Shown: piece after piece, positions 16,257 through 62,540 of the stretch
Layout: each line of letters opens with the position of its first letter
Position numbering within the stretch: position 1 is the first letter of the stretch
Origin: Chloroflexia bacterium
GTDB taxonomy: Bacteria; Chloroflexota; Chloroflexia; QHBQ01; JADMIH01
Reading direction: 5' to 3'
Length of the DNA: 64,000 nt
Assembly: GCA_036388595.1 (NCBI GenBank)
Contig: DASVRN010000269.1
Span: 1,628 to 65,627, forward strand
Program-made: the position numbers and the translations under genes
Notes under the pieces: generated by a model
Database searches by the model: none
Seen by the model: the letters and a program-made list of their open reading frames with translations, nothing else
Told to the model about the DNA's origin: nothing

Positions 16257-16331
16257 CGCGGGGTGGAGCAGTGGAAGCTCGTTGGGCTCATAACCCAAAG
16301 GCCGTAGGTTCGAATCCTACCCCCGCTACCA
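16257..16331 (+). tRNA. Initiator tRNA-fMet (anticodon CAT), CCA encoded
   Basis: About 85% identical to E. coli tRNA-fMet by eye: CGCGGGGTGGAGCAG...GGGCTCATAACCC...GGTTCGAATCC...CCCCGC; three G:C pairs closing the anticodon stem; C1:U72 mismatch. Confidence 0.9.
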
Positions 16332-18521: not shown

Positions 18522-18641
18522 ACTTTTGTATTTAAGCCTCCTATACCGCACCCGCCTGCGCAGTCCTCCTCTTGCCCCGGTGCGGCACTCTTCTACTGAA
18601 CATCAACTCCCCTAAGCATTCGTGAGAGGCCGATAGCACTA

Positions 18642-41456: not shown

Positions 41457-42460
41457 CTGGGCTTTACCAGCATGACCTGGTAGGTACCCTGCCAGCCATA
41501 CCTGTAGATGCGATAGAACGGGTCAACCAGCCGCAGCCCGCGCATCAGGTTCAGGAGCGTACGACGCAAGCCGTGTAGCTGCCGGATTTCCCCGGTGAGG
41601 ATGCGATGCCGCACCTGGTCGCGGACGCGAAAGCCCTTGCTCGAAGCCAGCCGAGCGAACGCAGCCCAGGTGTAGGTGTTAAGCTCCGAGTGCTCCTGCC
41701 GGTCCTGTAGAGGACCACCACTCTTGGAGCGGCCCGCACGCCTGATGACCTGCTCGGAGATAGGAGCGGGCAGCCAGTTGATAAGGGGCAGGTGGTAGTG
41801 TGGGTCGCGGAAGGCCCGGCGATTGGGCACGGTGGTCAGCACCACGCCGCCCGGCTTGAGCACCCTGTATATCTCACTCAGTACCGCCTCAACGTCTTGT
41901 ACGTGTTCCAGCACGTCCATGCACAGCACCACCCCGAACTGTCCGTCACCGTAAGGTAGCTTCTCACCCGCAGCCACAGTCAAGGGCAGGCCTAGGCTAT
42001 AGCGTCGCGCCCGCAAACGGGCAATTTGCGCGTAAGCTGGATTGTAGTCCGTGGCCTGCACCTCCAGGCCATTGTCCCCATACTCGCGCAGAAGGGCCAC
42101 CGAGAGGCCACCCATCCCGGCACCCAGGTCCAGCAGGCGAGTACCCTCCACGCGTAAGCCGAGCACCGGACGGATGTCACGCAGGTTGGCCTCCTGATGG
42201 TCCTCCTGCCAGATGCGACGTTCGCGCCAGCTATCGAAGTCGGCGCGCCACTTCATATGCTGCAACCACGGCTCGATAGCCTCCACTAAACTGGCCTCAA
42301 GCTCAGGGCTGGAAGTGGGCGGTACTATGTGGTTGCCTGCGTCCCTCGTAGCGGTTTCTACTGCCAATGTGTAGCCTCTGTCCGTGAAATTAGGGCCTAC
42401 GCGCCGCCATCGGCTCCCGGAGCGGCGTCCTGCTCGTCCTGCGAGTTGCGGCGTAGCCAA
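41453..42460 (-). CDS. Class I SAM-dependent methyltransferase (start uncertain; the listed start overlaps the DUF971 gene by 64 nt)
   Basis: LLDLGAGMGGLSVAL motif I; VVLCMDVLEHVQD; LKPGGVVLTTVPN. Confidence 0.65.
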   Translation of the reverse strand: MATPQLAGRAGRRSGSRWRRVGPNFTDRGYTLAVETATRDAGNHIVPPTSSPELEASLVEAIEPWLQHMKWRADFDSWRERRIWQEDHQEANLRDIRPVLGLRVEGTRLLDLGAGMGGLSVALLREYGDNGLEVQATDYNPAYAQIARLRARRYSLGLPLTVAAGEKLPYGDGQFGVVLCMDVLEHVQDVEAVLSEIYRVLKPGGVVLTTVPNRRAFRDPHYHLPLINWLPAPISEQVIRRAGRSKSGGPLQDRQEHSELNTYTWAAFARLASSKGFRVRDQVRHRILTGEIRQLHGLRRTLLNLMRGLRLVDPFYRIYRYGWQGTYQVMLVKPR

Positions 42461-42759
42461 TCGTACGTGTAGATGCCGTCGTGGTGCCCGTCGGCCCAGA
42501 AGAACATGATCGCGTACCTGCCGATTTGCTCCGCGCCCTGCATAGTGGTCTCCTGGGGGCTAAGCTCCTTCACGAAATCGAGCCGGCCGGGAGCGCCCAT
42601 CTCGCCCCGGCAAAGCGCGCATGGGCACTGCCACCGAAGCCAGTCCACCGAGTACTGAGTTACCTTGCCGTCGCTCCAGTTGATGTGGAGCCGGTTGTCA
42701 GCCTCGACCAGCTCAACGCCGATTGGCTCTATGGGATTGTAGTCTTGCGTGCTGTTCAT
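42397..42759 (-). CDS. DUF971 (gamma-butyrobetaine hydroxylase N-terminal-like) small Cys-containing protein
   Basis: LHINWSDGKVTQYSVDWLRWQCPCALCRGE...YAIMFFWADGHHDGIYTYDWLRRN fits PF06155. Confidence 0.5.
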   Translation of the reverse strand: MNSTQDYNPIEPIGVELVEADNRLHINWSDGKVTQYSVDWLRWQCPCALCRGEMGAPGRLDFVKELSPQETTMQGAEQIGRYAIMFFWADGHHDGIYTYDWLRRNSQDEQDAAPGADGGA

Positions 42760-42811: not shown

Positions 42812-44437
42812 CTATTGTTGCCGCTTGAAGAGCAAAATACCTTCTTTGTCCGCGTGCAGGGTCCACCCCGGCTCCGCTTGTACGAACTCTATCGCGTTCT
42901 TGCCGCCAATCATGCGGTCCGGCGAATTGAACGACTCGTTGCCGGGGTCCGCCAGGATGTAGTCGAGGTCAGTATAGGGAGGTCCGAAGCCGGGGTGGAC
43001 GTGCGGGCCGAGGTTGTATGGCGAGTAGGGCGCGGGCGGGAAGTTGTAGATGTAGCGCCGGGGGAGCAAGTGAGGGGCCAGCTTGGAAGTTACGGCAACC
43101 CTGGCGTCTTGCGGCACCATAGCTACCAATTCGTTCGCCGCCTGCACCTTGGCACCCGACTCGTGGAAGCGTATCACCCGCACCACCGGGTTGGCATAGG
43201 GCACTGTCATCAATAGCGCCCACAGTGCGAGGGCCACACCGCCTGACTGTAACAGCCGCTTGTTGACTCCTTCCTCTCGCTGCCGGGTCATCCACTTGCG
43301 CAGATTGTCCGCCCCGTAGATTGCCGCCGCCACCAGGCCGGGTACGAGCAGCAGGCTGTAGTGGGACTCGAGGTCTATCTGCGAGCCGCGCAACGACAGC
43401 AGGTTGAGCGCCAGGATAGGCAGACCAAGCACCAGGGGCTTCGGAGCCAGCAGGGGGAGCAAGCCAAGGGGCACCACCAGGTTGAGCAGGTACATCAGCT
43501 TTGGCCCCAGCAGCCCAGGCTCAAGCACGGCCTTGTTGAAAGTCTCGATGGGGTGCAGCAGGACGAACTGCGCGATTTCGGTGCCGCTACGCCCCAGGTG
43601 TGCGTAATAGGCCAGTTGGGGGCTCATGCCGCAGGGCCAGCACGACATATCAAACTGAGTACCAGGGGGTGGCGGAGTCAATGCGCCCGGATAGGCAAAG
43701 GAGGGTGTAATCACGAACGTGGAGAGCGCGAAGTAGCCCAGCCCGGCAACCAGAGGCAACAGTACGAACTGCCATTTGCGCCTGGTGAGGAGGCCATAGA
43801 ACCCGAACATCATCACGACCAGGGCCACATCGGTGCGGGCCAGCATGGCAGTCAGCGCGAGGGCCAGGAAAAGCTGCCAGTTGCCGCGCTCGTAGAAATA
43901 GAATCCGAACAGCAGCAGGGTCAAAGCGAAGAGTCGCACCTGAAACGGGTTGAGGGCAGTGTGCAACAGCGTCGGATAGAGCAGGTAGGCCGCCGCGATG
44001 CCCAGCGCAGCCAGCTTGACGCCCAACCTGTCGCGGGCGAGCCAGTACACAGGCAGCGCGCCCAGGCCGGAGGCGACGATTTGCAGGAAGAAGAGTGCGT
44101 GGGGCGAGGGTACCAACGCGTAGACCGGCACGAAGAAGAGCAGCATCGGCATCCAGTCCATGCCGAACACGGAGCCGGTGAAGTTGAAGCGCGAGTCCTC
44201 CATCACGCGGCCCTGGAGGGTGTTCCAGATGCCTTGCTCGAAGTCCACCTGGTCGTAGCCCTGGCCGAGCGTCTCGTACTTGTAGTAGCTCGCCACGAAC
44301 ATGACCGCTACCCAGAGCAGCATCATAACGGTCAGCAAGCGTGGGGCAAGCGACTCCAGCCGTATCAGGGCCATACTCAGCCGCCCCCCGGTCGCACTGG
44401 CACGTTCCGGCTGCCTGGCGGCCACCGTGCTGCTCAA
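42812..44437 (-). CDS. 541-aa polytopic membrane protein (DUF2079-like / GT-C-like); function unknown
   Basis: About 12 TM segments, periplasmic loops rich in aromatic residues; context within the glycan locus. Confidence 0.35.
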   Translation of the reverse strand: MSSTVAARQPERASATGGRLSMALIRLESLAPRLLTVMMLLWVAVMFVASYYKYETLGQGYDQVDFEQGIWNTLQGRVMEDSRFNFTGSVFGMDWMPMLLFFVPVYALVPSPHALFFLQIVASGLGALPVYWLARDRLGVKLAALGIAAAYLLYPTLLHTALNPFQVRLFALTLLLFGFYFYERGNWQLFLALALTAMLARTDVALVVMMFGFYGLLTRRKWQFVLLPLVAGLGYFALSTFVITPSFAYPGALTPPPPGTQFDMSCWPCGMSPQLAYYAHLGRSGTEIAQFVLLHPIETFNKAVLEPGLLGPKLMYLLNLVVPLGLLPLLAPKPLVLGLPILALNLLSLRGSQIDLESHYSLLLVPGLVAAAIYGADNLRKWMTRQREEGVNKRLLQSGGVALALWALLMTVPYANPVVRVIRFHESGAKVQAANELVAMVPQDARVAVTSKLAPHLLPRRYIYNFPPAPYSPYNLGPHVHPGFGPPYTDLDYILADPGNESFNSPDRMIGGKNAIEFVQAEPGWTLHADKEGILLFKRQQ

Positions 44438-45210
44438 CGCCTAATCTCCTGGCCCTTCTGGGCGACACACACCACCGACAGCCCGAACGGCAGGCGAGAG
44501 CGGCTGATGAACCGCGCCTCTCCCTGGTAGTACTTTATTAGCAGCTTGTTCACAAAGCCGGGCACCGGCATGAAGTCGGTTTCGGGGTCCTTGTTTTCGT
44601 TGCGGAGTTGCGCCCGCTTCTGGAGGAGCGTCTTCAGCAGGCGCACGAGCACCACCGGGGCCAGGATGAGGGCATTGGAGTAGCTTACTTTACGCACCCG
44701 CAGCCCCGCCTTCTGCATCGCCCGGCGCAGCATGCCGGTGGTATATCGCCTTCGGTGCCCCAGTATGTCGTCCCAGTAGGTCCACAGCGCCTTGTAGGCA
44801 GGTACGCTCACTATCAGCAGGCCGCCGGGCCTTAGCACCCGCTTCAGTTCCGTCAGCGCGGCGTGGTCGTCGTCCAGGTGCTCGATCACGTCGAGCGCCG
44901 TGATGATATCAAAGTAGCCGTCGGGGAAGGGCAAGTGGGCGGCGTCGGCCTTGGCGAGGCTGGTATGCCCGCGCTCCCGGCAGAAGGCCAACGCCTCTTC
45001 CGAGAAGTCGGTGCCGGTGGGATGGGCGTACCACGCCAGGTGGTCCAGGTTCATGCCCGTACCGCACCCCAGGTCGAGTGCCCGGCGCACGCGACCATTA
45101 GAGGCGGGGAGGTACCTGTCGAGCAAGCTGTAGACGATAGCGCGCTTGCCTACGTGCCACCAGTAGTCCTGCTCTTTGATGTAGAGGTCGTAATAGAGGT
45201 CTTGGCGCAT
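44434..45210 (-). CDS. Class I SAM-dependent methyltransferase
   Basis: ALDLGCGTGMN motif I; FDIITALDVIEHLDDD; LRPGGLLIVSVP. Confidence 0.75.
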   Translation of the reverse strand: MRQDLYYDLYIKEQDYWWHVGKRAIVYSLLDRYLPASNGRVRRALDLGCGTGMNLDHLAWYAHPTGTDFSEEALAFCRERGHTSLAKADAAHLPFPDGYFDIITALDVIEHLDDDHAALTELKRVLRPGGLLIVSVPAYKALWTYWDDILGHRRRYTTGMLRRAMQKAGLRVRKVSYSNALILAPVVLVRLLKTLLQKRAQLRNENKDPETDFMPVPGFVNKLLIKYYQGEARFISRSRLPFGLSVVCVAQKGQEIRR

Positions 45211-45214
45211 AAGC

Positions 45215-47191
45215 TTATGGTGCGTGGTAGCGGAAGAAGATCATGTCGCCCACCCAGGTGGTGAGCAACTGCCAGGTCATGGCCGCCAGTAATAGGGTGA
45301 CGAACCACCGGGCGAGGCGGCCCCGTTGCCCCAGGAGGCCCAGCAAGCGGCCCGACAGCAGGGCAACCGCCGCCGCGACCAGGTAGTACCATCGTATCGC
45401 GTCCCCAAGAGCCTGGTCGAGCAATGCGAAAACGCCCCCGACCGCCAACCACGAGCCTAGCCAGGCCCCCGCGACCGCCTGAAGTCGTGCCCCTGCTACC
45501 CCACCCCATGCGGCTAGTATTAGCTGCGCTGGGCCGACCAGGTAGACTACCTTACGGGCCAGCTTCTCCAGCGAGAATGGCAGTGCGGACGTCGTGCCGC
45601 TCTCCCCCCCGGCCACTCTGCCCAGCAAGCCGCCAAAGTGGTTACTTACCAGGTCCAGCACGTTCCGGTAGTAGGAGACGAGACTGACCGCCGTGGCGAA
45701 GGAAAAGACCCGGATGAGCCTCCAACCCCTGTCCGGCGCTCGGCCTCTTAGATGAGCTATAAACATCCACAACAGGAACAAAAGGGCTATCAGGAAGGCA
45801 CCTAACATCATACCGTAGTGCCCCAGCATCGTCAAGAAAAAGCAGGCACCTGTGGAAAGCAGCAGCCAGCCGTCACGTCTGACCGTATCGCTGCGGCCGT
45901 TCAGGTAGACCAGCCCGCCAAGCAAACCCAGGTTCAGCACGCTCTGGGCAAACAGGTTGGTGTAGTTGCCCGCGGAGAAGAGGTCGAACGGTGCGGGGGA
46001 AACAGCGTAGACCAGCGCCGCCAACCCTCCATACGCGCCCCTCCACAGCCTGTAACCGCACCAGGCCAGCGCCAGGCAGGTCAACGAGTCGAGCAGCGAA
46101 CACACCCACTTCAGGACCAACGCGAGGGCTTCATCGCCGCTGCCAAAGATCCAGGTAAGGGGAGCCACCAGTGCGTAGAGGGCCGGTGGATATGGGGCGG
46201 GAGTGCCATCAGGCAGAGGCTCGCTCATTATCCACTCGCCCCTTAGAAGCGCCTGGACGTTATGCACGTTGAGCAACAGGTCGCTTGTGAGAAACTGTGG
46301 GTAGGTGAGGCCGCCGAAGCGGAGCGCAAAGGCCAGCACGAACGCAGCCGATCCTAGCGCCACCGCGAATCGAGCAGCCGAGGTTGGTTCTCGGATGAGC
46401 GAGCCGAGCGCCAATCTTGCCAGGCCAGCGAGTACGAGACACCATGCCCCCATCGGCAGGATTGAGGGCACCAGCAGTCCCAACTCAGGCCGTGCTACCA
46501 GCAGCAGGAATGTAGACGCAACGGACAGCACTACGCCCACAGCCAGCGCGGGAAGGTGTCTACCCGTGGCGACCGCCGCCGCGAGACTAAACAGCAACAG
46601 GCCCACCGCGAACGTTAACAGAGTGCCCGGTGAAGGCAAGACAACCGGACGCAGCCCATATTCCGCCGGTGCGACCTCCACAGAGTCGATGTTGACGCCG
46701 AGGTCGCGGCCGCGATTGTTCGTTGGGTCTTCGTTGAAGGTCGCGGCCTCCAGGGTGAGCGTGAGGCTGGCCTGCCAGGGGTCGTTACGGGGCACGAAGA
46801 AGGTATCGGTGCGGCGTTCCGGGAGGCTGGGCACGCTGAACTCCTGCCCGCGGATCGTAACCTTTACTGCGCCAGGAGCAAGGTCGCTTGCCGCCCCAAC
46901 GTGGCTGATGGAGACGTTGACCGGCTGATTGCCGATTTCCGGGAAAGTAATGGTTGCATAACCCGTGCTCCAACGGTAATCGAACTCCGGCGTTGCCTCC
47001 TTCGCGTGGAAGCCGCTCACATATGCGTCGTCCAGCAGACCACCCACATCGACCCTATAGGGGGCCTTGTACTGGTACGCGGCGGTCCAAGCAGCAAGGC
47101 TAAACAGGAGGAGCAGGTACAGTGCGGGCGTCCGCAAAAGGCGGATGGCAGCATTCAAACCGGGGTGCAGAACGGTCACAAACGTTTTCAT
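45215..47191 (-). CDS. Paralog 1 of a four-gene tandem family: N-terminal TM anchor, about 170-aa extracytoplasmic beta-rich domain, about 12-TM domain; family unassigned, GT-C-like
   Basis: Architecture from hydrophobicity; shares blocks (R-x-GG-x-x-P-Q, HN/HM-K-W-L, P-L-T-W/F) with 47188-49239. Confidence 0.45.
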   Translation of the reverse strand: MKTFVTVLHPGLNAAIRLLRTPALYLLLLFSLAAWTAAYQYKAPYRVDVGGLLDDAYVSGFHAKEATPEFDYRWSTGYATITFPEIGNQPVNVSISHVGAASDLAPGAVKVTIRGQEFSVPSLPERRTDTFFVPRNDPWQASLTLTLEAATFNEDPTNNRGRDLGVNIDSVEVAPAEYGLRPVVLPSPGTLLTFAVGLLLFSLAAAVATGRHLPALAVGVVLSVASTFLLLVARPELGLLVPSILPMGAWCLVLAGLARLALGSLIREPTSAARFAVALGSAAFVLAFALRFGGLTYPQFLTSDLLLNVHNVQALLRGEWIMSEPLPDGTPAPYPPALYALVAPLTWIFGSGDEALALVLKWVCSLLDSLTCLALAWCGYRLWRGAYGGLAALVYAVSPAPFDLFSAGNYTNLFAQSVLNLGLLGGLVYLNGRSDTVRRDGWLLLSTGACFFLTMLGHYGMMLGAFLIALLFLLWMFIAHLRGRAPDRGWRLIRVFSFATAVSLVSYYRNVLDLVSNHFGGLLGRVAGGESGTTSALPFSLEKLARKVVYLVGPAQLILAAWGGVAGARLQAVAGAWLGSWLAVGGVFALLDQALGDAIRWYYLVAAAVALLSGRLLGLLGQRGRLARWFVTLLLAAMTWQLLTTWVGDMIFFRYHAP

Positions 47192-49239
47192 GTGGAGGCC
47201 CGTACCAAACGCTCAACCCAGAAGACCAGCGCCTGCCATGCCACCGCACTCAAAAGCAGTCCCGCCAGCCGCCTGCCCCAGGTGCCGTGCCCGCCCAGCG
47301 CGGCCAGACCCGCACCACCCGCGACCGCCACCGGCAGCATGGTGAAGAAGAGGTGCTTGCCGATCATGTCGAGCTTGTAATTCGCGGCAACGAAGATGGG
47401 CAGAATGGCAAGCCAGGCGATAACCAGGGTAGTAGCGCGAGACTGCACGTGGTTAACGTGCCGCCTTGAGAGGAGTAGAAGCATACCGGCCGCGGCTAGC
47501 AATGAGGGCAGAGTACTCGCCAGGTAATCACCCGTCCACGCGAGCAATTCAGCTATCCCGCCCGGCCACCGGACCGTCGTACCACCACCTGGTGCCGCGC
47601 CCAGCAGCGCCACCGCCGAGGCTGTCACAGGTGTCACATAGAGGCCGTAGTAGGCTATGAATGCCAGCAGCCAGCCCGCCGCCAGCACCACGTAAGGTTG
47701 CCAGCTAAAGGAGTGCGCTGATTTCGGAGCGGGGCGGGACAACCTCCAACCCACCGGCACGACCGCCAGGATCAAGGTTACAAACACCGCCACAGTTGGG
47801 AAGGACAGCAACGTGAGAGCAGCAAGCAACACTGCCGCCAGCAACGTGGCAAGTCGCCACCCCTTTGCCGAGGAGGCAAGCACGACTGCCAGCAGACCCG
47901 TAGCAAGCCACTGGGCAAGTATGGTCGGCAGGATGCCATAGGAGAAGGCGCGGAACGCCAGGGGCATCACCGCATAGAGGAAAGCAGCAGCCAATGCTGC
48001 CCTTGTGGAAGCACCAACTCGCCGGGTGAACCAGTATGCGAACAGCAGAATAGTGGAATCTATCAAGCAAGTTGACCATTTGACCAATGTCTCAAGTTCG
48101 AATGATAGGGTTGCCAGAGGCGCGGCGGCAAGGTAGAACAGCGGGGACTTGGGGATTAACAGCGCCATGCCCCATTCCGGCGGCACCTCGCTCAACCCAC
48201 CCGGAAAGTACAGCGCCTGCCAGTCGCCCGCAAGCAGAGTACGCAGCCACTTCATGTGGTAGGGCATGTCTATGATTACCGCTTGGGGAAGCGCCATCCC
48301 GCCGTAGCGCAACCCGAAGGCGAACGCGACTGCAACGGACAACAGCCGCGCGACTTGCAGCCCAGGACCCGAGCTACGCCAATCGACCACTCGCTCACTT
48401 ACCAGGAATACAAGCAGCATGCTGCCCAGGGTAGTCGCTAGGTGTGGTGCCACCACAGTAGCTGCTGTGTGGCTACTTGCCAGCAACAGACAGAGGCCGA
48501 CGCCCACCGCCAGACTCACCACTAAAGCTCGTATCGGTACTGCCCGCCTGGCGCTGAAGCCCCGTAGCATCCTGCCAATCAGGATGTATGCGACCAATAT
48601 GCTCAACATCAGGAAGCCCAACGTCGTCAGGGAGGGCCAGATGAAGCCCCCGGCTGGGGACTGTTCGAGAACGAGGCGGTCTACCTTCAGCCCTTTGGCC
48701 TGTGCTTCTTCGCCTGGTAGACGGTACTCAGAAGCGCGAAATTCTACTACTGTGTCTCGGGACGCCAGGGCAGCGGGTTGGCTCTCATCGATTCTGAACG
48801 TCAGCTCCTGCCAGCCAGGCACGACCTCGGAGGCAAAGAACCTGACGCCGTTCACGTGTACCTCAACCGGCGCCGTCCGCTGGGCGTCCAGGGTGACGGT
48901 TAGCGTGAAGGGCCTGGAGCCACCCACACCAGGGAAGCTCACATAGCCGTATACGTCGGACCACCTGTAGGTGCGGCCCGATTCCTCAAGGCGAGTGTGG
49001 AAGTTACGGGTGTACGCCTGGTCCTGCGGCGAGCCGACATCCACAATGTACGTGCCTGGAATCTGGTAGGCTGCAACCGATAGGCCCATTACCAGCATGA
49101 GGCCAGGCCAGACGACCCACCACCTCAGCAGTCCCACGGCGAAGCGGAATTCTTCAACAATCCACCGCACGAGTGAGAAGAGATAGGCAGCGACTCCCAC
49201 CGGAGGGCGCGGGGCACTTGGACGGCTACTTGAAGGCAT
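47188..49239 (-). CDS. Paralog 2 of the tandem polytopic membrane-protein family; start at ATG 49239 (MPSSSRP) to remove the spurious Cys/Arg-rich leader
   Basis: AYQIPGTYIVDVGSPQD...RWSDVYGYVSFPGVGGSRPFTLTVTLD beta-domain aligns with paralogs 3 and 4; 4-nt overlap with paralog 1. Confidence 0.45.
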   Translation of the reverse strand: MPSSSRPSAPRPPVGVAAYLFSLVRWIVEEFRFAVGLLRWWVVWPGLMLVMGLSVAAYQIPGTYIVDVGSPQDQAYTRNFHTRLEESGRTYRWSDVYGYVSFPGVGGSRPFTLTVTLDAQRTAPVEVHVNGVRFFASEVVPGWQELTFRIDESQPAALASRDTVVEFRASEYRLPGEEAQAKGLKVDRLVLEQSPAGGFIWPSLTTLGFLMLSILVAYILIGRMLRGFSARRAVPIRALVVSLAVGVGLCLLLASSHTAATVVAPHLATTLGSMLLVFLVSERVVDWRSSGPGLQVARLLSVAVAFAFGLRYGGMALPQAVIIDMPYHMKWLRTLLAGDWQALYFPGGLSEVPPEWGMALLIPKSPLFYLAAAPLATLSFELETLVKWSTCLIDSTILLFAYWFTRRVGASTRAALAAAFLYAVMPLAFRAFSYGILPTILAQWLATGLLAVVLASSAKGWRLATLLAAVLLAALTLLSFPTVAVFVTLILAVVPVGWRLSRPAPKSAHSFSWQPYVVLAAGWLLAFIAYYGLYVTPVTASAVALLGAAPGGGTTVRWPGGIAELLAWTGDYLASTLPSLLAAAGMLLLLSRRHVNHVQSRATTLVIAWLAILPIFVAANYKLDMIGKHLFFTMLPVAVAGGAGLAALGGHGTWGRRLAGLLLSAVAWQALVFWVERLVRAST

Positions 49240-51295
49240 AAGTGATCCTGTATTGCCACAGGTTGAGAGCCTCGAATGCGAAGAAGGCGAGCACCAGGCA
49301 CACCAGCACCTGGCCCGCCCATCCGCGCCGCGACACCCCGGAGAGCACAATCGCGCTGCCCAGGCATAACACCGGCAGGGCGAACAAGGCGTATCGCACG
49401 TAGAGGTTCATCGTCCACCCAACCAGGGCGAACGCCAGCACCGCGCCACCCCAACCGAGCACGGTCAGCACGAGCATCCGCCGCCGTATAGCCCAGGACT
49501 GTAACCGGCGGCGAACGGGCCAAACGACCATGAAACCGAGTAAGGCGGCCAGCACGGGCCACACGCGGTAGTATGCCTGCGCCTCGTTCCAGAATCCAAG
49601 CAGGCCCCCGAAGAACCACTCGCGGCGCGTCTCGGCGTAGCGCACCACCAGACCCAGGCTCCGGTCCGACACCGAACCCCCGATGAGCAGGTGCAACGCC
49701 CCAGGTTCTGCTTCGGCGGCACGCTCCGCCCGTATCTGCTGGAGGGTGGTGAGCATATCCGCCGCGAAGTGGCTGTAGTAGAAGGTGTAGGCTAACCCAG
49801 CGCCGAGCAGCAGGGCCGACAGCACCCACACCCCGGCAGGGACGGCTCGCCTCACACCAGCTTGAGACTTCCTGCCAAACGCCCACCAGATCAGGCCGGT
49901 TAATCCAACAGCAGCACCCGTAAGCTGCACGACACCGGGGTGGCTGAGCAGGGCGGGCAGCAGCAACAGGAGTAGCAGCCAGAACGCCGGTTTCGACGGC
50001 CTTAGATAATGGTAGCACGTCACGAGCAGGGTGAGAGCGCACAGGGCGAAGTACTCCCCGAACAGGTTTGAAGTGATGCCCCAGGAGTACGGGAGCACCG
50101 CGATGGGCATGATGACGTACAGCCCGGAGGCAAGCAAGGCAACGCGGCTGTCTCCCGTTGAAGCCTTCGCGGTCAGGTAGAGCAACCCGGCCCCCAACGT
50201 GCCCAGCGCCACGGTGAACAGCCTTATCACCAGGAGTTGGTCGTTCAGGAGTGCCTGTAGGGGGAGCATGAAGACATACGGGGTAGGCAGGTAGAAGGTC
50301 TCGTGCCCGCCCCATTCGTCCGACCTGATGGTGAACAGGAGTTGCCCGGCCTGTACCGTGTCGAACCTGTGGCTGTGGAAGACGAGGTCCATGATGAAGA
50401 TGAGCGGGTGTAATTGTCCGACGAACCGCACGACGAACGCCAATAGCATCACGCTTAACAGGATGCGCCGGTCGAGCACGGGCCACCGAGCGCCCACGAC
50501 ACGCTTCACGGCAAGACCTGCCACCGCCGCCAGGCCCACGAACACCGCCCCCGCTAAAAGCGCTTGCGGCCAGGCTTCATACCAGCGCCCCGACGTCAGC
50601 CACAACCTGTTGGCAACCAGCAGCCAGGCGGCCAAAAGCCCCACCAGCGCGGACCCGGTCGCCACCACACCCACTCCCCAGCCAAGCAATGCCAGGACCA
50701 CGCCCAGGGTGGCGGCGGCAGCGACCAGTCCGAGTACCACGCGCAACGGCGGCTCGATGAAACGGTCGGGGTTGGCGGCGGGCTGGACCAGCACCCCTGT
50801 GACCACCACGCCGAGCGGTCGCGGGTTGGGGTCTTCAGGCGGCACAAAGGTGTTGCCGGAGAGCCGCAGCACCAGCGTTCCATCGGCAAGGCCCTCCCGC
50901 GACACCTGGAACGAGTAATTGGTCAATTGGGGCGCGGGATTCACCTCCAGCAGCGTACGGTCGCCCACGTCTACTCGAAGTGCTGCCAGTTCCTGCCCCG
51001 CTGGGCGAAACCCGCTCGCGGTCAGGGTTATATTGAAGTCCTGCCTGCCTACATCGCGTAAGGTGACGAACGACTCCTCTGTAGTCCACCGGAACGGCTG
51101 CGGGACTTCACCCGGCATTTGTTCGGGCGTGTTGAAGCCGCGCACCATCGAGGCGTCCAGGGGCGTACCTATACCAATGGCATACGTTGGCCGGACCTGG
51201 TACGCCAGTACAACCATCACCAGGGTCGCGAATACCCCCACGAAGGTGCCTGGGTTCAGCAGCCGTCTCAATATGGTGGCAAGTTCGGTCCTCAC
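49226..51295 (-). CDS. Paralog 3 of the tandem family; GTG start (VRTELATILRRLLNPG) chosen by analogy with paralog 4, which removes the Cys-rich leader
   Basis: LNPGTFVGVF...AYQVRPTYAIGIGTPLD...FRWTTEESFVTLRDVG aligns with paralog 4 MSLRPVLRTLLNPGIYAGAL...GYQSRPTQQVIVGSPTD. Confidence 0.45.
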   Translation of the reverse strand: MRTELATILRRLLNPGTFVGVFATLVMVVLAYQVRPTYAIGIGTPLDASMVRGFNTPEQMPGEVPQPFRWTTEESFVTLRDVGRQDFNITLTASGFRPAGQELAALRVDVGDRTLLEVNPAPQLTNYSFQVSREGLADGTLVLRLSGNTFVPPEDPNPRPLGVVVTGVLVQPAANPDRFIEPPLRVVLGLVAAAATLGVVLALLGWGVGVVATGSALVGLLAAWLLVANRLWLTSGRWYEAWPQALLAGAVFVGLAAVAGLAVKRVVGARWPVLDRRILLSVMLLAFVVRFVGQLHPLIFIMDLVFHSHRFDTVQAGQLLFTIRSDEWGGHETFYLPTPYVFMLPLQALLNDQLLVIRLFTVALGTLGAGLLYLTAKASTGDSRVALLASGLYVIMPIAVLPYSWGITSNLFGEYFALCALTLLVTCYHYLRPSKPAFWLLLLLLLPALLSHPGVVQLTGAAVGLTGLIWWAFGRKSQAGVRRAVPAGVWVLSALLLGAGLAYTFYYSHFAADMLTTLQQIRAERAAEAEPGALHLLIGGSVSDRSLGLVVRYAETRREWFFGGLLGFWNEAQAYYRVWPVLAALLGFMVVWPVRRRLQSWAIRRRMLVLTVLGWGGAVLAFALVGWTMNLYVRYALFALPVLCLGSAIVLSGVSRRGWAGQVLVCLVLAFFAFEALNLWQYRITYAFK

Positions 51296-51314
51296 GAGAA
51301 GTAGGCGACCTCTT

Positions 51315-53375
51315 CTACTTGAACTGGTAGCTGATTCTATAATGCCACAGCAGCATCGCCTCGACGGCGAAAAACACCACCACGAGAAGCGACAGCAGGC
51401 GTCCGCTGCTGCCCCTGCGCCACACACACGACAGCAACAACCCGGCACCCAGTGCGATTACAGGTAGCGCCGAGAGCATGTAGCGCACGTAGACGCTGGT
51501 TGCCCAGCCCACAATGGCGAACAGCGCCACTACGCCGAACCACGCGCCGCCCGCCAGGACGAACCGCAGCCGCTCGCGTCCACGGGGATGTGCGAGAAGC
51601 CCCTTTACCGGGAGCACCAGCACAAGCCCGAGGACTGCCGCCAGCACCGGCCACCCCCGGTAGTAGGCGACGACCTCCCGCCACACACCCTCTAGCCCAC
51701 CCAGCACCCACCGGCTGCGACTCCTCACTTCCCAGTTGATGAGGCCCAGGCTTGCGTCCTCCACCGAGCCGCCCACTACGCGACTGAAGCCCTCCCCCTG
51801 GCTCGCCTGTGCCCTTTCGGCTCCGATGCGAGCCAGGCTGTCTAACATTTGCCCCGTGAAATGGTGGTAGTAGACCGCGTAGGATATACCCGCAGACAGC
51901 ACCAACGATACAAGCAGCCATGCCCCCGCACGCCTCGTAGCGCCACGCCTAGCCAGCCACAGTACGCCGACCAATCCAAAAGCTACCCCACTCAACGCGA
52001 CCACGCCGGGGTGGCTGAGCAACGTAACCGCCAGCAGTATGACGAGCGCCCAGAAGACAGGTCTCGTGGGAGCCAGGTTCCCGGCACTACCAAACGCGAC
52101 CGCCAGCGAGCAAAGCATGAAGAACTCGCCAAAAATATTCGGAGTGATGCCCCAGGAGTAAGGCAACACTGACATGGGAAGCGACACGTACAGCAGGGCA
52201 GCCAGGACTCCCGCTCGCCCACCAGGCAGGAGTCGCCGGGCAATGTAGTAGATGGGCAGCACACCGAGCGTTCCCAGGAGGACGGTGAGCACCCTTATGG
52301 CTAGCCTGCCGTCGGCGAGCAGCCAGTCAAGAGGCATGGCGAACAGGTAAGCTGTGGGCAGATAGAAGGTCTCGTGTCCGGTGCCCCCGAACTCGGCTGG
52401 TGCGTTGGTGAAGAGTAATTGGCCGGTCTGCACCAGGCGCAAGTGGTTCAGGTGAAAGCCGAGGTCGTAGACGAAGATTTGAGGGTGTAGCTGCCCGGCC
52501 AGGCGCACCACGAACGCGACAAACAGTACGGTGAGAAGCAGCATGCGCTCCGCACGCGACCACACGACCCCGCCCAGGCGTAGCAACCACCCACCCAACA
52601 ACCAGGCAAGCCCCACAACCACCCCGCCCAGCAACAACACGCCAGCCCACACCCCATACCACTCCCCGGTGGTGAGCCAGAGACGGTCAAGCACCAGGAG
52701 GCCCCCTGCCAGCAGTCCGGGGAGACTCGCGCCAAGACCGACCAGGCCCCTCCCCCAGCCCAACAATGACAGCAACAATCCAGCCAGGACGGCCGCGAGC
52801 AAGACGGACACAAGCACCGGAAGCGCAGGCGTAAGTATCCCCGGCCCGCCCTGTACTGGTTGCACGGCAATGCGGGTTACGATGAGACCAAGCTCGCGCG
52901 CGTCTCCCGGCACCTGGAAGGTATTGCTGGAAAGCTCCAGGGTAAAGCTACCGCGTTGGGACTCGAGCAACGAAGTGGGGACGACAAACGTATAGGTCTC
53001 CACTTGGGGCGGCGGTTGGACCTGTAGAAGTACTTCACCGTTTACCTGTGCGGTGAGCACCGGAGGGGGCGTATCAGGAGGTCGCGAGCCGTTGACCGTG
53101 AGGGTTATCGAATATGGCTGCGCTCCCAGGTCGGTGAACGTCACACGGCCGTAGCCGCTAAGCCACCTGAAGGTCCGGTAGCCCAGGTCCACGCCCTCCG
53201 GCACCCGCTCCGGCCCACTGAAGCCATCGAGTAGAGGCGCGTCCGTGGGCGAGCCGACGATGACTTGCTGCGTCGGGCGCGACTGGTAGCCTAACACCAC
53301 CAGCAGACACGAGATGAGGGCACCTGCATAGATGCCGGGATTGAGCAAGGTCCTGAGCACGGGGCGCAGGCTCAC
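51315..53375 (-). CDS. Paralog 4 of the tandem polytopic membrane-protein family
   Basis: Same architecture; FVVRLAGQLHPQIFVYDLGFHLNHLRLVQTGQLLFTNAPAEFGGTGHETFYLPTAYLF block shared with paralog 3. Confidence 0.45.
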   Translation of the reverse strand: MSLRPVLRTLLNPGIYAGALISCLLVVLGYQSRPTQQVIVGSPTDAPLLDGFSGPERVPEGVDLGYRTFRWLSGYGRVTFTDLGAQPYSITLTVNGSRPPDTPPPVLTAQVNGEVLLQVQPPPQVETYTFVVPTSLLESQRGSFTLELSSNTFQVPGDARELGLIVTRIAVQPVQGGPGILTPALPVLVSVLLAAVLAGLLLSLLGWGRGLVGLGASLPGLLAGGLLVLDRLWLTTGEWYGVWAGVLLLGGVVVGLAWLLGGWLLRLGGVVWSRAERMLLLTVLFVAFVVRLAGQLHPQIFVYDLGFHLNHLRLVQTGQLLFTNAPAEFGGTGHETFYLPTAYLFAMPLDWLLADGRLAIRVLTVLLGTLGVLPIYYIARRLLPGGRAGVLAALLYVSLPMSVLPYSWGITPNIFGEFFMLCSLAVAFGSAGNLAPTRPVFWALVILLAVTLLSHPGVVALSGVAFGLVGVLWLARRGATRRAGAWLLVSLVLSAGISYAVYYHHFTGQMLDSLARIGAERAQASQGEGFSRVVGGSVEDASLGLINWEVRSRSRWVLGGLEGVWREVVAYYRGWPVLAAVLGLVLVLPVKGLLAHPRGRERLRFVLAGGAWFGVVALFAIVGWATSVYVRYMLSALPVIALGAGLLLSCVWRRGSSGRLLSLLVVVFFAVEAMLLWHYRISYQFK

Positions 53376-55621
53376 CGCGCATTGCTCCCCGTGCTGCCTC
53401 CAGTGTTGTGCTTGTAGAGCGTGACGAACTCGTTGGACCAGACCTGTTGGCCCGCCGAGAAGCCGTACTGCGCCGGGTCCTCTCCGGTCCAGAGTAGCGC
53501 GAAGTCGGGGGTCGGTGCCGGTTGCGGTGCCTGTATGGGCTGCCCGAAGCTAAGCCGCGACTCGCCGTACTGGAGGTGGTCGCGCAGGTAGAAAGCAAGT
53601 GCGGCCATGTAGCCCCCGTACACAGTCTCAGCGCCCTCGCGTGCGGGGTCGTTCTCAGGGTTCGCCAACAGCAACGAGGCACCTGCGGGTATTAGTCCGG
53701 CTAGCTCCTGTGCGTCGTCCGGCCCGGTGAGGCGGTAGACGCGGTCGGGGCCGAAGTCCTGCACCAACTCGAAATCGTCTACAACTTTGCCTTCTGGAGC
53801 GGTCGAGCGCCACTTGAAGTCCTCACGTTGCGGCCCGCTCAGGTTCTCCAGGTGCGCCACTACGTACTCGACACCCAAAGCTCTCAAGGCACCCAGGCTG
53901 CGCGGGCAAGGGAAGCAGCGCTCGGTCTCCAGCACCAGGGCCGAGTACGCGAAGGGGCGAATGGTGGTGCTGCCGTTGATGGTGTTGTGCCAGTGGTACA
54001 CGCTGTAATACTGGTACATGTTTGCCATCTCGACGCTGGGGTCGCCTCGTTTGTAGTGGGTCATCGGGTATTCCAGGATGACGCTCTGGGGTTGCGCGGC
54101 AAGCCACTTGTAGACGGCCGGTACCGCGTCTCTAGTGCCCACCGGCTGCATGCTGATGGGCGCGCTCCAACTTTCGGCTACGGGCACAAACGCAACCAGC
54201 ATCGCCACAACCGGCACCAACCTGCGCGCCACTGCTTGCCCCTTTGTCCTCGCCAACAGGTACCTCAACAGGAATAACGCGCCTATACCGGCGAGCACCG
54301 CTAAAGCCAGCGCCGTGACAATCCCGATCCTGGTGACCACGCGCATGCTCTGGAAGCCGGGTACCCACTCGTGCAGAAACAGGTAGGGCAGGGGCATCAC
54401 ACGCTGAATGGCCGCCGGGTCGTAGTTGGAGGGCGCATACCAGGGTTGCAGGCTCGGCCCAAGGGATAACACGGCGGAAATAATTGCCACGATTGCATAG
54501 AACCCGGCATGAAGCCTGAGTGAACCTTTTACGACGCCGTCCGGTACTGACACTGCTCTCCTGCGAAACGCGAGAAGCAAGCCGGCAATCGCCAGCCCCA
54601 GCACGAAGAAACCAGGGAAGGCAGCGCGCTCGATGGCCCAGGGGCCGGGGTCGGCAAAGGGGGCCAGTAACGACCTGTAGGCGGGGCTGCCCTTGAACAC
54701 GGCCAGGAAACTGGCAAGGGTGTTAGAGAAGCGTTCGGCCTCAAAGATGCTGCGGCTGAACTCGAATTGGCCCTGGTCGCGCACGTAGGGGATGGCAATC
54801 GGCAGGATGAACACCAGTGAGCCTGCGAGCCCTGCACCTGCTTTTACCAGGAAGGTGAAGGAGAACACTCTTCGTTGTGCAAGGGCGTAGTAGAGGACGA
54901 ACAGCCCAAGCAGCATCGCGGTGTAGAAGGCCAGGTAATGTCCCGACAGTGCCTGCAAAGTGAAGAAGCCACCCAGCGCCAGCGCCCAGCCCCACTCCCG
55001 CGTCCAGAGCAGCTTGTAGGCGGCCAGCAGCACCAGCGGCATCCATTGGGTGTTATCCAGGGTGATGTGGGGCAGGTGATTTATGCGATAGAAGCAGAAC
55101 GCGAACGCCGTGCCCGCCACGATCCCCGCCCAACTGCTCCCGGTCAATTCGCGCACCAGCAGCCACGTGGCCCATCCCGACAGTACGAAGCTCAGGAAGA
55201 GTATCAGGTTGTGGCTGAGCACCGGGTTGCCGAGCAGGAAGTAGAAGGGGGCCGACAGCACGGCCTGGGCGAACGAAAGCTCGTCAAAGGTGAGCGTTCC
55301 ACGGAAGGGGTACATGATATTGCTGTTGAAGAGGTCGAACGGCTGGGTCGCCAGCGCGTGCGCCTGCCACGCCATCGCCCACACGCTGTAAAGTGGATCG
55401 CCCTTGTCCATGACGAAGCCGCCTAATTGCGGGAACATCGGCCAGGTGGCGACGATGGTGAGCAGCGTGAAAGCGCCGAGCACGGCCAGGTGCGGCAGCA
55501 GTCTCGACATCCTTGAGGGTCGTGCGGGTACGGTAAGGTCAGCCCGCTCCGGAGCCACCTCTTCAGCCGGCTCGGGCTCGACCACGCTTGTAGCCGCGAA
55601 TTGCAGACGACCTACTTTCAT
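53372..55621 (-). CDS. 749-aa polytopic membrane protein homologous to the 21003-22973 product; GT-C-like, possibly YfhO/PTPS-related-type
   Basis: N-region GDPLYSVWAMAWQAHALATQPFDLFNSNIMYPFRGTLTFDELSFAQAVL aligns with the 21003 gene; more than 12 TM plus C-terminal soluble domain. Confidence 0.4.
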   Translation of the reverse strand: MKVGRLQFAATSVVEPEPAEEVAPERADLTVPARPSRMSRLLPHLAVLGAFTLLTIVATWPMFPQLGGFVMDKGDPLYSVWAMAWQAHALATQPFDLFNSNIMYPFRGTLTFDELSFAQAVLSAPFYFLLGNPVLSHNLILFLSFVLSGWATWLLVRELTGSSWAGIVAGTAFAFCFYRINHLPHITLDNTQWMPLVLLAAYKLLWTREWGWALALGGFFTLQALSGHYLAFYTAMLLGLFVLYYALAQRRVFSFTFLVKAGAGLAGSLVFILPIAIPYVRDQGQFEFSRSIFEAERFSNTLASFLAVFKGSPAYRSLLAPFADPGPWAIERAAFPGFFVLGLAIAGLLLAFRRRAVSVPDGVVKGSLRLHAGFYAIVAIISAVLSLGPSLQPWYAPSNYDPAAIQRVMPLPYLFLHEWVPGFQSMRVVTRIGIVTALALAVLAGIGALFLLRYLLARTKGQAVARRLVPVVAMLVAFVPVAESWSAPISMQPVGTRDAVPAVYKWLAAQPQSVILEYPMTHYKRGDPSVEMANMYQYYSVYHWHNTINGSTTIRPFAYSALVLETERCFPCPRSLGALRALGVEYVVAHLENLSGPQREDFKWRSTAPEGKVVDDFELVQDFGPDRVYRLTGPDDAQELAGLIPAGASLLLANPENDPAREGAETVYGGYMAALAFYLRDHLQYGESRLSFGQPIQAPQPAPTPDFALLWTGEDPAQYGFSAGQQVWSNEFVTLYKHNTGGSTGSNAR

Positions 55622-57059: not shown

Positions 57060-58652
57060 CTACCGGGGTACGTATATATTCTCAACGTTGCGCTGATCCA
57101 GTTTATAATTATCACGCAGGGCCTGCAAGATGCCGGGCGAAACGTCCCCCGCGCCGGGATTGGGGTCAAAGATATTGATGCGTAAGATCACCTGCGCGAA
57201 GCCTTTGCGCCTTATCTCGGCCACAAGCTTGCTCTCGTCCCAGCGCCCGTATTGAGTGGCATGCGTCTGCGTATAAGGGTCGGTCGTCCAGAGCCGCTTG
57301 CCTGTAGTTAGCAGCAGTCCCACGTTGTCCGAGTAGGCGGGGCCGCCGTTGTTGGTCACGTACTGGAAGATCTTGTGCATCTCGCCCGCTATCTCAGGGT
57401 GCATCGGCCTGAAGGAACGCTCCAGCCAGGCCGGGTTCGAGAAGAGCGAGGGTAGAGCCAATACTACCACGAGAGCTACCCCCACCGCCGCGACCCTTAC
57501 GCCCAGGTACTCCGCACGCCGGGTCAGCCCCGCCGCCATGCCCAGCCCCAACCCTCCCGCAGCCGCCCAGTCGAGCAGGTGGTTGTGATTACCGCCTAGC
57601 GTGCCGGTGCCTATCGACACGAAGACGCTCATGCCCAGGTGGGCCAGCAGCAGGATAGCACCCCGGTGCAGCGTGTCCAGCCTGGCGCTCCGTTGAGACA
57701 CCCGCACCCACAGCGAGCGCAGGCCCACTAGCAGCAAAGCAACCATACCGGGCACAAGGAACACGGCATAGGTGGTAGCAAAGTTGCTGACGTACAGTGC
57801 GAAACGGTCGGCCATCCAGGGCAGGTCGTGCACGGGGCTGGGCAGGCCAGGCAACTCGAAGGTGCCCTGGTGGTAGTAATAGCCGCCGTCGGTCATCCAG
57901 GTGAGGATGGCACTCGGAACGAACGCACCCAGGGCGTACGCGCCCAAGAAGCCCAGACCCATACGAGGCCGCATTACCAGCAGCCAGAATATGCCCGCAG
58001 CAGCCGCGGCAATCGCTGTCTGCTTGGTGTAGAAGGCGGCCAAGAAAAACAGCAGCGCCCACCACGCCTGCCGCTCCGGCTTGGCTAGCAGCCACCACAG
58101 CCCCGCGAAACCCAGCGCCACCGCCGTCATGTCGGGCTTGACCAGGCTGCCCCAGAAGGTGACCACCCCCAGCGACCACCAGGCAGCAGCGCCTATTGCA
58201 CCCGCCAGCCTGTCCCTCGTAAGCGCCACCACGATGCCGAATATCGCCACGCCCACGAAGATAGTCGCCAGTATCGAGATCGTGCGCCCGACCTTGAAGG
58301 TAGGCTCGCTCCCCGCCAGGTGCTGACCCGGCAACGCTAGCAGGTAGAACAGTGGCGGATAAGGGGCGGAGATGAAGAGGTCGGGGCCGGGCACATCAAA
58401 AATAGGTACCCCCTGGTCCAGCAGCATCGTCTCGGCAACTATCATGCCTTCCGACTCGTCAAACTGGAACGGGTAAGCCCACATCTGCGCCGAGGTAGCA
58501 GCCGAAAAGGCGCTCTTGGCGACCAAACCTACCAGCAGAAGCACCAGCACACCGGTAAGCGCCCAGCTTGCGAGCCGCCACACCTCTGGCCTGTCCGGCA
58601 CCGAAAAGTGCCGGTTACTCTGTATTTCCTCTGGATTCCTTACCGTTGGCAT
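57060..58652 (-). CDS. GT-C-fold polytopic membrane glycosyltransferase-like protein (PMT_2/ArnT-like)
   Basis: First loop [16 protein letters not shown] acidic DE motif; about 11 TM; C-terminal soluble domain. Confidence 0.45.
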
Positions 58653-62177: not shown

Positions 62178-62540
62178 CTACTTCAGCCCTCTAATGTAGA
62201 CAAGCAGGCTTGCCAATTCCTCCTCGGAGATTTCCCGGTCGCTGAAACCTGGCATGCGGGTCTTACCATGCCGGACGAGATCGCGTACCTGTTGGTCGGA
62301 GAGGCCCGGGAGCGCCCGGATGAGAGACGGTCCCGCGCCCAGGCCGCCGCCAGGGTGGCAGACGTTGCAGTAGCGTTGGAACACCACCTCACCGGAGCGG
62401 GGAACCCCCGTGCCGGAGTTACCACTCCCGCCGTTGTCGCAGGCAGCAAGGGCAACGGGTACAAGCAGCGCAGAAAGAATTAGCAACGTGCTGAGCACCA
62501 GGCGTGTGGGGGTGTGCGTTCTCAAGTTACGACTTTGCAT
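62178..62540 (-). CDS. Class I c-type cytochrome, lipoprotein (lipobox LAAC)
   Basis: CNVCH heme-binding motif; signal peptide with VPVALAAC; distal Met in GKTRMPGF. Confidence 0.75.
   Translation of the reverse strand: MQSRNLRTHTPTRLVLSTLLILSALLVPVALAACDNGGSGNSGTGVPRSGEVVFQRYCNVCHPGGGLGAGPSLIRALPGLSDQQVRDLVRHGKTRMPGFSDREISEEELASLLVYIRGLK

Follow-up and report, generated by a model that had tools for sequence, protein, structure and literature searches.

The window analysed here, a 64-kb stretch of DNA from a Chloroflexia bacterium, contains a tandem array of four genes on the minus strand. An ORF check of the window confirmed the coordinates that an earlier note on this DNA had assigned to them, and they are referred to as paralogs D, C, B and A in the order of transcription:

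51315-53375, minus strand: paralog D, 686 residues; a TM anchor, then a CBM-like beta-sandwich and a region of 14 TM helices in which the predicted GT-C core lies
49226-51295, minus strand: paralog C, 689 residues from a GTG at 51295; the core subtype, found at all related loci
47188-49239, minus strand: paralog B, 683 residues from an ATG at 49239; the subtype that diverges most and has fixed substitutions of its own
45215-47191, minus strand: paralog A, an ORF of 658 residues

Both of the start codons proposed in the earlier note hold up. The GTG at 51295 is the first in-frame start past the stop codon of D and gives C an N-terminus of the same length as in its orthologs, and the ATG at 49239 is kept as MPSSS or MRSSS in most B orthologs with a readable N-terminus, sitting inside the conserved YAFK-stop end of C. 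The upstream gene overlaps D by 4 nt (GTGA), C overlaps B by 14 nt and B overlaps A by 4 nt (ATGA), while D and C are separated by a gap of 19 nt. Translational coupling, which had been claimed for the whole array, is therefore compatible with three of the four junctions, those where the genes overlap. Long ORFs in alternative frames, for example 49125-50486 and 46305-46928, were rejected as real genes and considered by-products of the high GC content.

Pairwise BLASTP comparison shows that the four products align well, with a similarity far above chance, which confirms them as paralogs. C and D share 46.5% identity over 694 columns, that is over their full length (E 1e-161), A and B share 27% (E 3e-20), and the remaining pairs give E-values of 9e-17 (A-D), 1e-14 (A-C), 2e-15 (B-D) and 2e-13 (B-C); none of the neighbouring polytopic proteins showed a significant BLASTP match to any of the four. 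The array had been described as two sub-pairs. C and D indeed form a pair, but A and B were rejected as sisters, since ortholog classification and a rough NJ tree give three deep clades, one each for A, B and C/D. A search of 1.84 billion cluster representatives yielded 963 family matches with E<=1e-30; relaxing the limit to E<=1e-10 raised this to 2430. For paralog A, 105 homologs were found, two of which carry the JGI name 'ArnT-like glycosyltransferase', and one A-type homolog matches DUF6541 with 32.5 bits. A search of a literature collection returned no publication on the four-paralog family, on DUF2079 or on DUF6541. In a genome scan for related loci, which was run with the C/D alignment, C-type orthologs occur in 37 of 37 loci. 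The order D-C-B-A is fixed across these loci, with one to four copies present, and gene order is conserved even in distant MAGs.

The architecture of the proteins was derived from AF2 models of D and B in combination with DSSP, hydropathy and a check of the positive-inside rule. The features of D, together with the positions equivalent to its residue D304 in the other paralogs, are as follows:

53286-53339, minus strand: TM helix that anchors D near its N-terminus, residues 13-30; its mean hydropathy is 1.8, and R4 and R8 lie ahead of it
52857-53270, minus strand: beta-sandwich of D, residues 36-173, predicted extracytoplasmic and CBM-like, with the invariant R70-W71 at 53163-53168
51318-52556, minus strand: predicted GT-C core of D, residues 274-686, from DSSP, hydropathy and the positive-inside pattern
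52464-52466, minus strand: putative catalytic Asp codon, D304 of D, at the N-terminal tip of JM1 (helix 305-316)
50387-50389, minus strand: equivalent codon in C, D303
48268-48270, minus strand: equivalent codon in B, D324
46280-46282, minus strand: equivalent codon in A, D304

The N-terminus of D is predicted to be cytoplasmic, and the clustering of Lys and Arg in alternate loops, which obeys the positive-inside rule, fits this placement. The predicted chain thus runs from the cytoplasmic N-terminus through one TM helix to a beta-sandwich on the outside, followed by three helices and an 11-helix GT-C core. This is the order of anchor, beta ectodomain and TM region that the earlier note had given, but the beta-sandwich spans about 140 residues rather than 170, and about 14 further TM helices follow it rather than 12, with a predicted total of 15 in the models of D and B. 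The core of D consists of TM1, the first external loop EL1 with JM1 and JM2 (residues 296-355) and ten more TM helices; a further external loop (503-572) holds an insertion that the four-way alignment shows to be specific to C and D. EL1 and every near-invariant polar residue lie on the outer side in the predicted topology, and both models terminate in a TM helix at about residue 680.

In a structural search with the predicted models, 320-345 residues could be aligned to solved GT-C enzymes. AglB and STT3, both oligosaccharyltransferases, match best, with Pmt4 next; PIG-U and GAB1, which serve as scaffold or substrate-presenting GT-C-fold subunits in the GPI transamidase, are also among the matches. 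Emb proteins are absent among the structural matches listed. An ABC or MFS transporter was ruled out, as no match to such a family was found in structure or sequence. Enzymes of the GT-C-A type share an N-terminal module of seven TM helices, with JM1 and JM2 between TM1 and TM2, and a catalytically essential Asp at the tip of JM1 (PMC12041299). The proteins of the array display a predicted seven-TM module with JM1 and JM2, an active-site loop that is extracytoplasmic in the predicted topology and, judged by position relative to the predicted helices, an Asp at the JM1 tip; in the AF2 model of B, D324 is located directly ahead of helix 325-336. This single Asp, found in the motif VYD, IMD, IID or TSD across the four, is invariant in 95 aligned family members as well as in 75 of 75 locus-derived orthologs covering all four subtypes. 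From its place in the secondary-structure string, D304 would be equivalent to ArnT D55 or PglB D56. The invariance of the GT-C-A catalytic Asp supports the earlier suggestion that these are membrane glycosyl- or polymer-transferases of GT-C type. The external TM3-TM4 loop contains the conserved residues S407, G409 and N413, and no conserved acidic motif stands out among its near-invariant positions. Of the sequence blocks described before, YQ...G...D, R-W and R-x-x-G...P are common to all four paralogs, but L-N-P-G is confined to C and D, and the proposed R-W-[ST] reduces to R-W, since D carries Leu at the third position.

Paralog B departs from this pattern at several positions where A, C and D do not vary (Y338K, N413T, H455F, G457T and R631K). 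These substitutions are fixed in 15 of 15 B orthologs, which argues for a maintained subtype of different specificity, even though they fit altered specificity as well as loss of activity. The B orthologs retain the JM1-tip Asp (15/15), R311, which corresponds to R291 of D (14/15), and the R-W of the beta domain.

At the sequence level, links to named GT-C families are weak. Pfam and NCBIfam searches with A-D returned only an STT3 trace (TIGR04154, archaeo_STT3; 16 bits against a cutoff of 450), with no Pfam STT3 match, and a chance match to Phage_Orf51. PDB sequence searches with profiles of 4 and 95 members gave only chance matches to a GPN-loop GTPase and LexA at E>1. None of A-D matches PMT_2 (PF13231) at E<=1, let alone its gathering threshold of 26.1 bits, and in a Pfam scan of relatives that covered 43 C/D members a single one does (E 0.0026). 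P0013, 80% identical to D, reaches 26.2 bits and one Chloroflexus member 23.4 bits. The window's own PMT_2 protein (37682-39136) shows no significant relationship to the family profile (hhalign probability 1.2%). YfhO (PF09586) is likewise not matched by A-D; the one score came from the product of the gene upstream (53372-55621), which with 27.4 bits narrowly misses the cutoff of 28.5. The Emb Pfam families matched in none of the scans, and the C-terminal CBM and DD pair of Emb are also absent. The label 'unassigned' therefore stands insofar as sequence matches in Pfam, NCBIfam and PDB all stay below threshold, but more distant Chloroflexus members are already annotated, in RefSeq as 'glycosyltransferase family 39 protein' and in part by JGI as 'ArnT-like'.

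Structural matches assign the beta domain to the beta-jelly-roll CBM fold seen in CBM35/CBM22/CBM6-type modules. Its R-W is invariant across orthologs of all four subtypes, and the domain also occurs in fusion with proteins whose PMT_2 domain scores above threshold. By sequence, A-D have no Pfam CBM match, and the sole trace of a CBM family is a sub-threshold hit to CBM60 (E 0.054) in the homolog P0204. Emb (PMC7341804) and a GT136 enzyme (PMC11127046) are GT-C enzymes whose CBMs bind the glycan that serves as acceptor. By analogy with the CBMs of EmbC and the GT136 enzyme, the beta domain may hold the acceptor chain.

The array is embedded in a cluster of about 40 kb with roughly ten GT4 genes, three SAM methyltransferases, a Wzx-like protein and PMT_2, YfhO-like and DUF2079 proteins; besides the array, about six proteins of the cluster are GT-C-like, and an SLH-domain protein (24373-26823) lies at one end. 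No GT2 polyprenyl-phosphate-sugar synthase and no small GtrA/SMR-type flippase were found in the 64-kb window.

Taking together the computed paralogy, the fold of the predicted structures, the conserved Asp, the outward-facing conservation and the conserved synteny, we consider it likely that the four proteins are outward-facing GT-C-A glycosyltransferases, which most probably extend or decorate a cell-surface polysaccharide. As such they belong to a known class of enzymes, in which they form an uncharacterised branch, and do not make up a novel type of system. Our inferences on the type of donor, the acceptor, the linkage specificity and the oligomeric state are as follows. The active site would face outward and be built around the invariant JM1-tip Asp (D304 in D), with possible contributions, in D, from R291, H308, Y338, Y343, Y396, S407, N413, H455, Y502, Y503 and R631. 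As is typical of GT-C enzymes, the donor would be a polyprenyl-phosphate-linked sugar flipped to the outer face, from which the sugar would be transferred to a growing cell-surface glycan, itself presumably started and exported by the approximately ten cytoplasmic GT4 enzymes and the Wzx-like flippase of the cluster. A, B and C/D would be three old, separately conserved subtypes, each most likely with a different linkage or donor, and the paralogs may act as hetero-oligomers in the manner of EmbA-EmbB and Pmt1-Pmt2.

The ranking of AglB, STT3 and Pmt4 in the structural search, the weak archaeo_STT3 match, the sporadic PMT_2 matches and the SLH protein at one cluster end would also suit OST- or PMT-like protein glycosyltransferases that modify secreted or S-layer proteins, such as that SLH protein, rather than a polysaccharide. 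We regard this as quite improbable, considering that the STT3 score is far below its cutoff, that the CBM fold of the outer domain points to a glycan acceptor and that stepwise assembly of a glycan would better explain three to four fixed subtypes surrounded by GT4 genes. Furthermore, the last element of the proteins is a TM helix, which leaves no C-terminal soluble domain such as OSTs use for their WWDYG-type acceptor-peptide site, and PMT-like MIR domains are missing too. The 'ArnT-like' names could be taken to mean that the proteins modify lipids or glycolipids by adding a sugar to the head-group of a membrane lipid or to a lipoglycan anchor instead of wall polysaccharide. This is very unlikely in our view: the names were transferred automatically from COGs, ArnT is not known to have a CBM-like domain with an invariant R-W, and the prevalence of GT4 genes in the locus, together with a Wzx-like flippase, is what polymer assembly typically shows. 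Least probable of all is that at least one of the paralogs, B being the best candidate, is a non-catalytic scaffold or substrate-presenting subunit of GT-C fold for a catalytic partner from an adjacent gene, a role that the substitutions in B, the matches to PIG-U and GAB1 and the known heterodimers of GT-C paralogs such as EmbA-EmbB (PMC7341804) might suggest, but one that the residues retained by B and the equally good fit of its substitutions to altered specificity speak against.

We thus favour glycosyltransferases acting on a surface polysaccharide, a reading that could be carried further. The array, the other GT-C-like proteins, the GT4 enzymes and the methyltransferases might form an assembly line of mycobacterial type, in which Emb-like hetero-oligomers build an essential, partly methylated wall heteropolysaccharide mostly outside the membrane. 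This extension is speculative and on balance rather unlikely; if true, such a line would have arisen independently in Chloroflexia, and its enzymes would constitute a new CAZy GT family that carries an acceptor-binding module at the N-terminus. The four-paralog array as such reveals no new mechanism. The envelopes of Chloroflexia are poorly understood, and the majority of these organisms are uncultured. Reading the proteins as GT-C enzymes with an acceptor-binding module would mark the array as a conserved envelope-glycan locus and provide an annotation for thousands of 'hypothetical proteins' outside Pfam coverage, and the array offers a second natural case, besides embCAB, of tandem GT-C paralogs in which the evolution of linkage specificity can be studied.

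Amongst known systems, AglB, STT3 and PglB (GT66) differ from the proteins described here by their C-terminal soluble domain; the STT3 score is 16 bits against 450, and the external TM3-TM4 loop of the array proteins shows no conspicuous conserved acidic motif. ArnT and the PMT_2 enzymes (PF13231; GT83, GT39) carry a C-terminal periplasmic domain or MIR domains, whereas the soluble domain here is N-terminal and CBM-like, and PMT_2 matches occur in 0/4 window proteins and 1/43 C/D members. GtrABV-type three-component systems combine one GT-C gene with a donor synthase and a flippase, in contrast to the three to four paralogs found here and a window lacking both the synthase and a small flippase. 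The Emb proteins (CAZy GT53; embCAB) come from tandem paralogous genes and differ in the acceptors they recognise; their donors are polyprenyl-phosphate sugars, they act on wall polysaccharide outside the membrane, and they are well over 1000 residues long. Of the 15 TM helices of EmbB, the first do no more than hold an N-terminal CBM on the outside; they are followed by a GT-C core of 11 helices, and the catalytic Asp lies near residue 285 (PMC7341804). The proteins of the array differ from Emb in having about 680 residues, a single Asp instead of the DD pair, no C-terminal CBM, four helices rather than two before the GT-C core and a host in Chloroflexia rather than Mycobacteriales, and Emb appears neither in the Pfam results nor among the structural matches listed. 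They resemble it in the 15 predicted TM helices, the anchored N-terminal CBM-like domain and the conserved Asp at 303-324. Likened by described features rather than by sequence, they also resemble GT136 ORF12 of Citrobacter youngae, a GT-C enzyme that acts after export with a polyprenyl-phosphate sugar and, as proposed here for the array, carries a CBM that binds the acceptor (PMC11127046).

The four paralogs, here A to D, are arranged in the order D-C-B-A, with a 4-nt overlap between D and the gene upstream, a 19-nt gap between D and C, and overlaps of 14 nt and 4 nt at the C/B and B/A junctions. Their open reading frames are as follows.

45215-47191, minus strand: paralog A
47188-49350, minus strand: paralog B
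49226-51448, minus strand: paralog C
51315-53375, minus strand: paralog D

The B and C frames open with Cys/Arg-rich leaders that correspond to the ends of the preceding genes, translated out of frame. Of the starts proposed in the earlier note, the GTG at 51295 for C is the first in-frame start past the stop of D, and the ATG at 49239 for B lies within the conserved YAFK-stop end of C, with MPSSS or MRSSS found in most B orthologs that have a readable N-terminus.

Pairwise BLASTP showed that the four proteins are genuinely related, most strongly C and D (46.5% identical along their whole length, E 1e-161), the other pairs ranging from E 3e-20 to 2e-13 (A-B, 27% identity, 3e-20; A-D, 9e-17; B-D, 2e-15; A-C, 1e-14; B-C, 2e-13); no significant similarity to the other polytopic proteins of the window was detected by this method. 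Their alignment contains 48 invariant columns: among these, Y-Q follows directly on the first TM helix, the soluble domain holds an R-W pair, and the main membrane domain opens with R-x-x-G-x-x-x-P-x5-D. The motifs described earlier were mostly right, although L-N-P-G is confined to C and D, and D carries Leu rather than Ser/Thr behind R-W. Similarly, only C/D is a true pair of the two sub-pairs proposed: in a rough neighbour-joining tree without bootstrap, A, B and C/D form three deep clades, each with metagenomic relatives nearer than the other paralogs.

The AlphaFold2 model of D, built from a 95-member alignment, has a mean pLDDT of 95.1 and a pTM of 0.93, and that of B, the most divergent paralog, a pLDDT of 90.1 and a pTM of 0.91. 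All 19 top structural matches of D and all 20 of B have the GT-C fold.

Structure matches, models D and B compared (two figures each)
AglB: 25.7, 25.7
STT3B: 24.1, 22.8
ALG12: 23.7, 22.4
Pmt4: 22.0, 20.2
PglB: 20.8, 18.9
AftA: 20.7, 18.5
ArnT: 20.6, 20.1

To rank 19, the D model further matches Pmt2, ALG9, AftD, DPY19, GPI-MT-I, Pmt1, ALG3, AftB, PIG-U, GAB1 and ALG6. Foldseek was concordant (STT3A, E 6e-6; Pmt4, E 1.5e-5; AftA, E 1.6e-4).

The topology of D, derived from DSSP strings and the Lys/Arg distribution, comprises 15 predicted TM helices, with positive residues in alternate loops all along.

R4 and R8: N-terminus, predicted cytoplasmic
13-30: TM anchor
36-173: outer beta-sandwich
within 185-267: three extra TM helices
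274-295: GT-C TM1
296-355: first external loop (EL1), with helices 305-316 (juxtamembrane helix JM1) and 341-353 (JM2)
thereafter: ten further TM helices, with the second external loop at 503-572

TM1-7 and the juxtamembrane helices JM1 and JM2 are common to all enzymes of the GT-C-A fold class, in which an aspartate essential for catalysis sits at the JM1 tip (PMC12041299). In the model, D304 (paralog D numbering) occupies this position at the predicted JM1 tip; it does not vary across the 95 aligned members and is kept in all 75 orthologs extracted from loci of this kind (16 of type A, 15 B, 34 C and 10 D), as is R70, with W71 and R291 each present in 74. Judging from its place in the predicted secondary structure, D304 may be equivalent to ArnT D55 or PglB D56. 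The near-invariant polar residues (R291, H308, Y338, Y343, Y396, S407, N413, H455, Y502, Y503 and R631) all map to the predicted outer side. At positions invariant elsewhere, the B type carries Y338K, N413T, H455F and G457T, each in 15/15 orthologs, and R631K is found in 14/15; these fixed substitutions fit a maintained, distinct specificity.

Pfam returned no match for A, C or D and a chance match for B, the sole NCBIfam signal was a 16-bit trace to archaeal STT3 (cutoff 450), and PDB profile searches with 4-member and 95-member profiles yielded chance matches only. When 43 C/D-type members were scanned one by one, a single one touched PMT_2 (E 0.0026) and one DUF6541 (E 9e-4). Sequence tests placed none of A-D in GT53, GT66, PMT_2 or YfhO. 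The previous reading, a membrane glycosyl- or polymer-transferase of no named family, is supported, the top structural matches all being GT-C and the sequence searches pointing to no named family: A-D represent a branch of the GT-C superfamily that is uncharacterised and lies outside Pfam coverage. A group of proteins of ~790-830 aa (P0203-P0207) aligns to the family profile across the beta domain into the membrane region (hhalign, 99-99.7% probability, E 2e-18 and 7e-26). Because of this alignment, and because P0203 and P0204 contain a PMT_2 domain above the Pfam threshold, GT-C cores are repeatedly accompanied by the anchored beta module.

The window belongs to a Chloroflexia MAG, paralog A is 100% identical to VF826_17350, and word-indexed searches with D and A each recovered ~100 homologs, all from Chloroflexia or Chloroflexota MAGs. 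An exhaustive profile search yielded 963, 2430 and 5154 cluster representatives at E<=1e-30, 1e-10 and 1e-3, the best 150 matches being mostly near full-length; distant Chloroflexus members carry the RefSeq name 'glycosyltransferase family 39 protein' and others the JGI name 'ArnT-like'. A scan with one genome per species found 37 loci, all in uncultured Chloroflexia or Chloroflexota, in which HMM scanning and best-hit classification revealed a fixed array order with variable copy number.

D-C-B-A: window, L003, L005, L006, L011, L012, L018, L020
D-C-B-A, cut by contig ends: L004, L008, L010
C-B-A: L014, L023, L027, L035, and L001 with a frameshifted A
C-A: L015, L017, L019, L021, L030
C-B: L013
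C alone, or one unclassified copy (L002): several loci

On two large ENA contigs, L001 (13967-16125) and L021 (12062-14168), the A-type ortholog is spread over two or three overlapping ORFs, reflecting either frameshift assembly errors or pseudogenes.

The array lies inside a ~40-kb minus-strand cluster (22970-62084) with about ten GT4 glycosyltransferases, three SAM methyltransferases, a Wzx-like Polysacc_synt_3 protein, an SLH protein and further GT-C-like polytopic proteins.

29906-32698: weak PMT_2 protein
37682-39136: PMT_2 protein
42812-44437: DUF2079 protein
53372-55621: YfhO-like protein
58640-60817, minus strand: PMT_2 and TPR protein
57060-58652, minus strand: unassigned 530-aa protein, no Pfam match

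Distant MAGs (L001, L040) share the gene order that surrounds the array, and a methyltransferase adjoins the family member even in the distant single-copy loci L002 and L041; the locus is a conserved Chloroflexia envelope-glycan cluster. The adjoining gene in the window (44434-45210, minus strand) encodes a Methyltransf_11/23 SAM methyltransferase, with a counterpart in every locus whose annotation was examined (window, L001, L040, L002, L041), a hint that the product may carry methylated sugars. Neither a GT2 polyprenyl-phosphate-sugar synthase nor a small flippase was found in the 64-kb window; in L041, one GT2 is encoded close to the distant member. In L002 (Chloroflexi MAG OHK40), a 131-aa EamA-like membrane protein (9599-9994) and two methyltransferases precede the single-copy member, an arrangement reminiscent of ArnT with its ArnE/F-type flippase subunits.

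The 725-aa product of 58640-60817, with weak PMT_2 and TPR matches, is hit weakly by the family HMM (38 bits), as are proteins similarly placed upstream in L012, L021 and L035 (45-60 bits), and may be a fifth, distant relative. Residues 60-115 of the 530-aa protein, with a DESEG motif, resemble the EL1 region of paralog A (57 aa aligned, 39% identical, E 0.018), and this protein may be another unrecognised GT-C enzyme. A 120-aa protein between the DUF2079 and methyltransferase genes (42397-42759, minus strand) has same-position counterparts with a GBBH-like_N Pfam match in L001 and L040, and appears to be a conserved part of the cluster.

Outside the cluster, two tRNA genes (16257-16328 and 18451-18522, plus strand) flank an M3 peptidase gene. 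Just upstream of the glycan cluster, a 120-aa ORF (62178-62540, minus strand) combines a lipoprotein-like N-terminus, a hydrophobic stretch followed by Cys, with a CxxCH haem-binding motif (CNVCH). A 52-nt inverted repeat (62718-62769/62835-62886; arms 90% complementary, 65 nt apart) occupies low-GC intergenic sequence between an isoleucyl-tRNA synthetase fragment and a small cytochrome-c-like ORF. No Rfam family matches the repeat, which yields '...DEISHYVRND...' pseudo-ORFs from both strands.

The best-supported reading is that A-D are extracytoplasmic GT-C-A glycosyltransferases elongating or branching a cell-surface glycan. The sugars would come from polyprenyl-phosphate-linked donors, and the acceptor would be held by the CBM-like beta domain; an acceptor-binding CBM is documented for a GT136 enzyme (PMC11127046). 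Enzymes of protein glycosylation, or lipid modifiers of the kind represented by ArnT, fit less well, as do non-catalytic subunits. A-D have their closest architectural analogue in EmbB, and the Emb proteins are likewise encoded by tandem paralogs (embCAB). EmbB has 15 TM helices, the first of which solely anchor the N-terminal CBM and are followed by an 11-helix GT-C core, with the catalytic Asp near residue 285 (PMC7341804).
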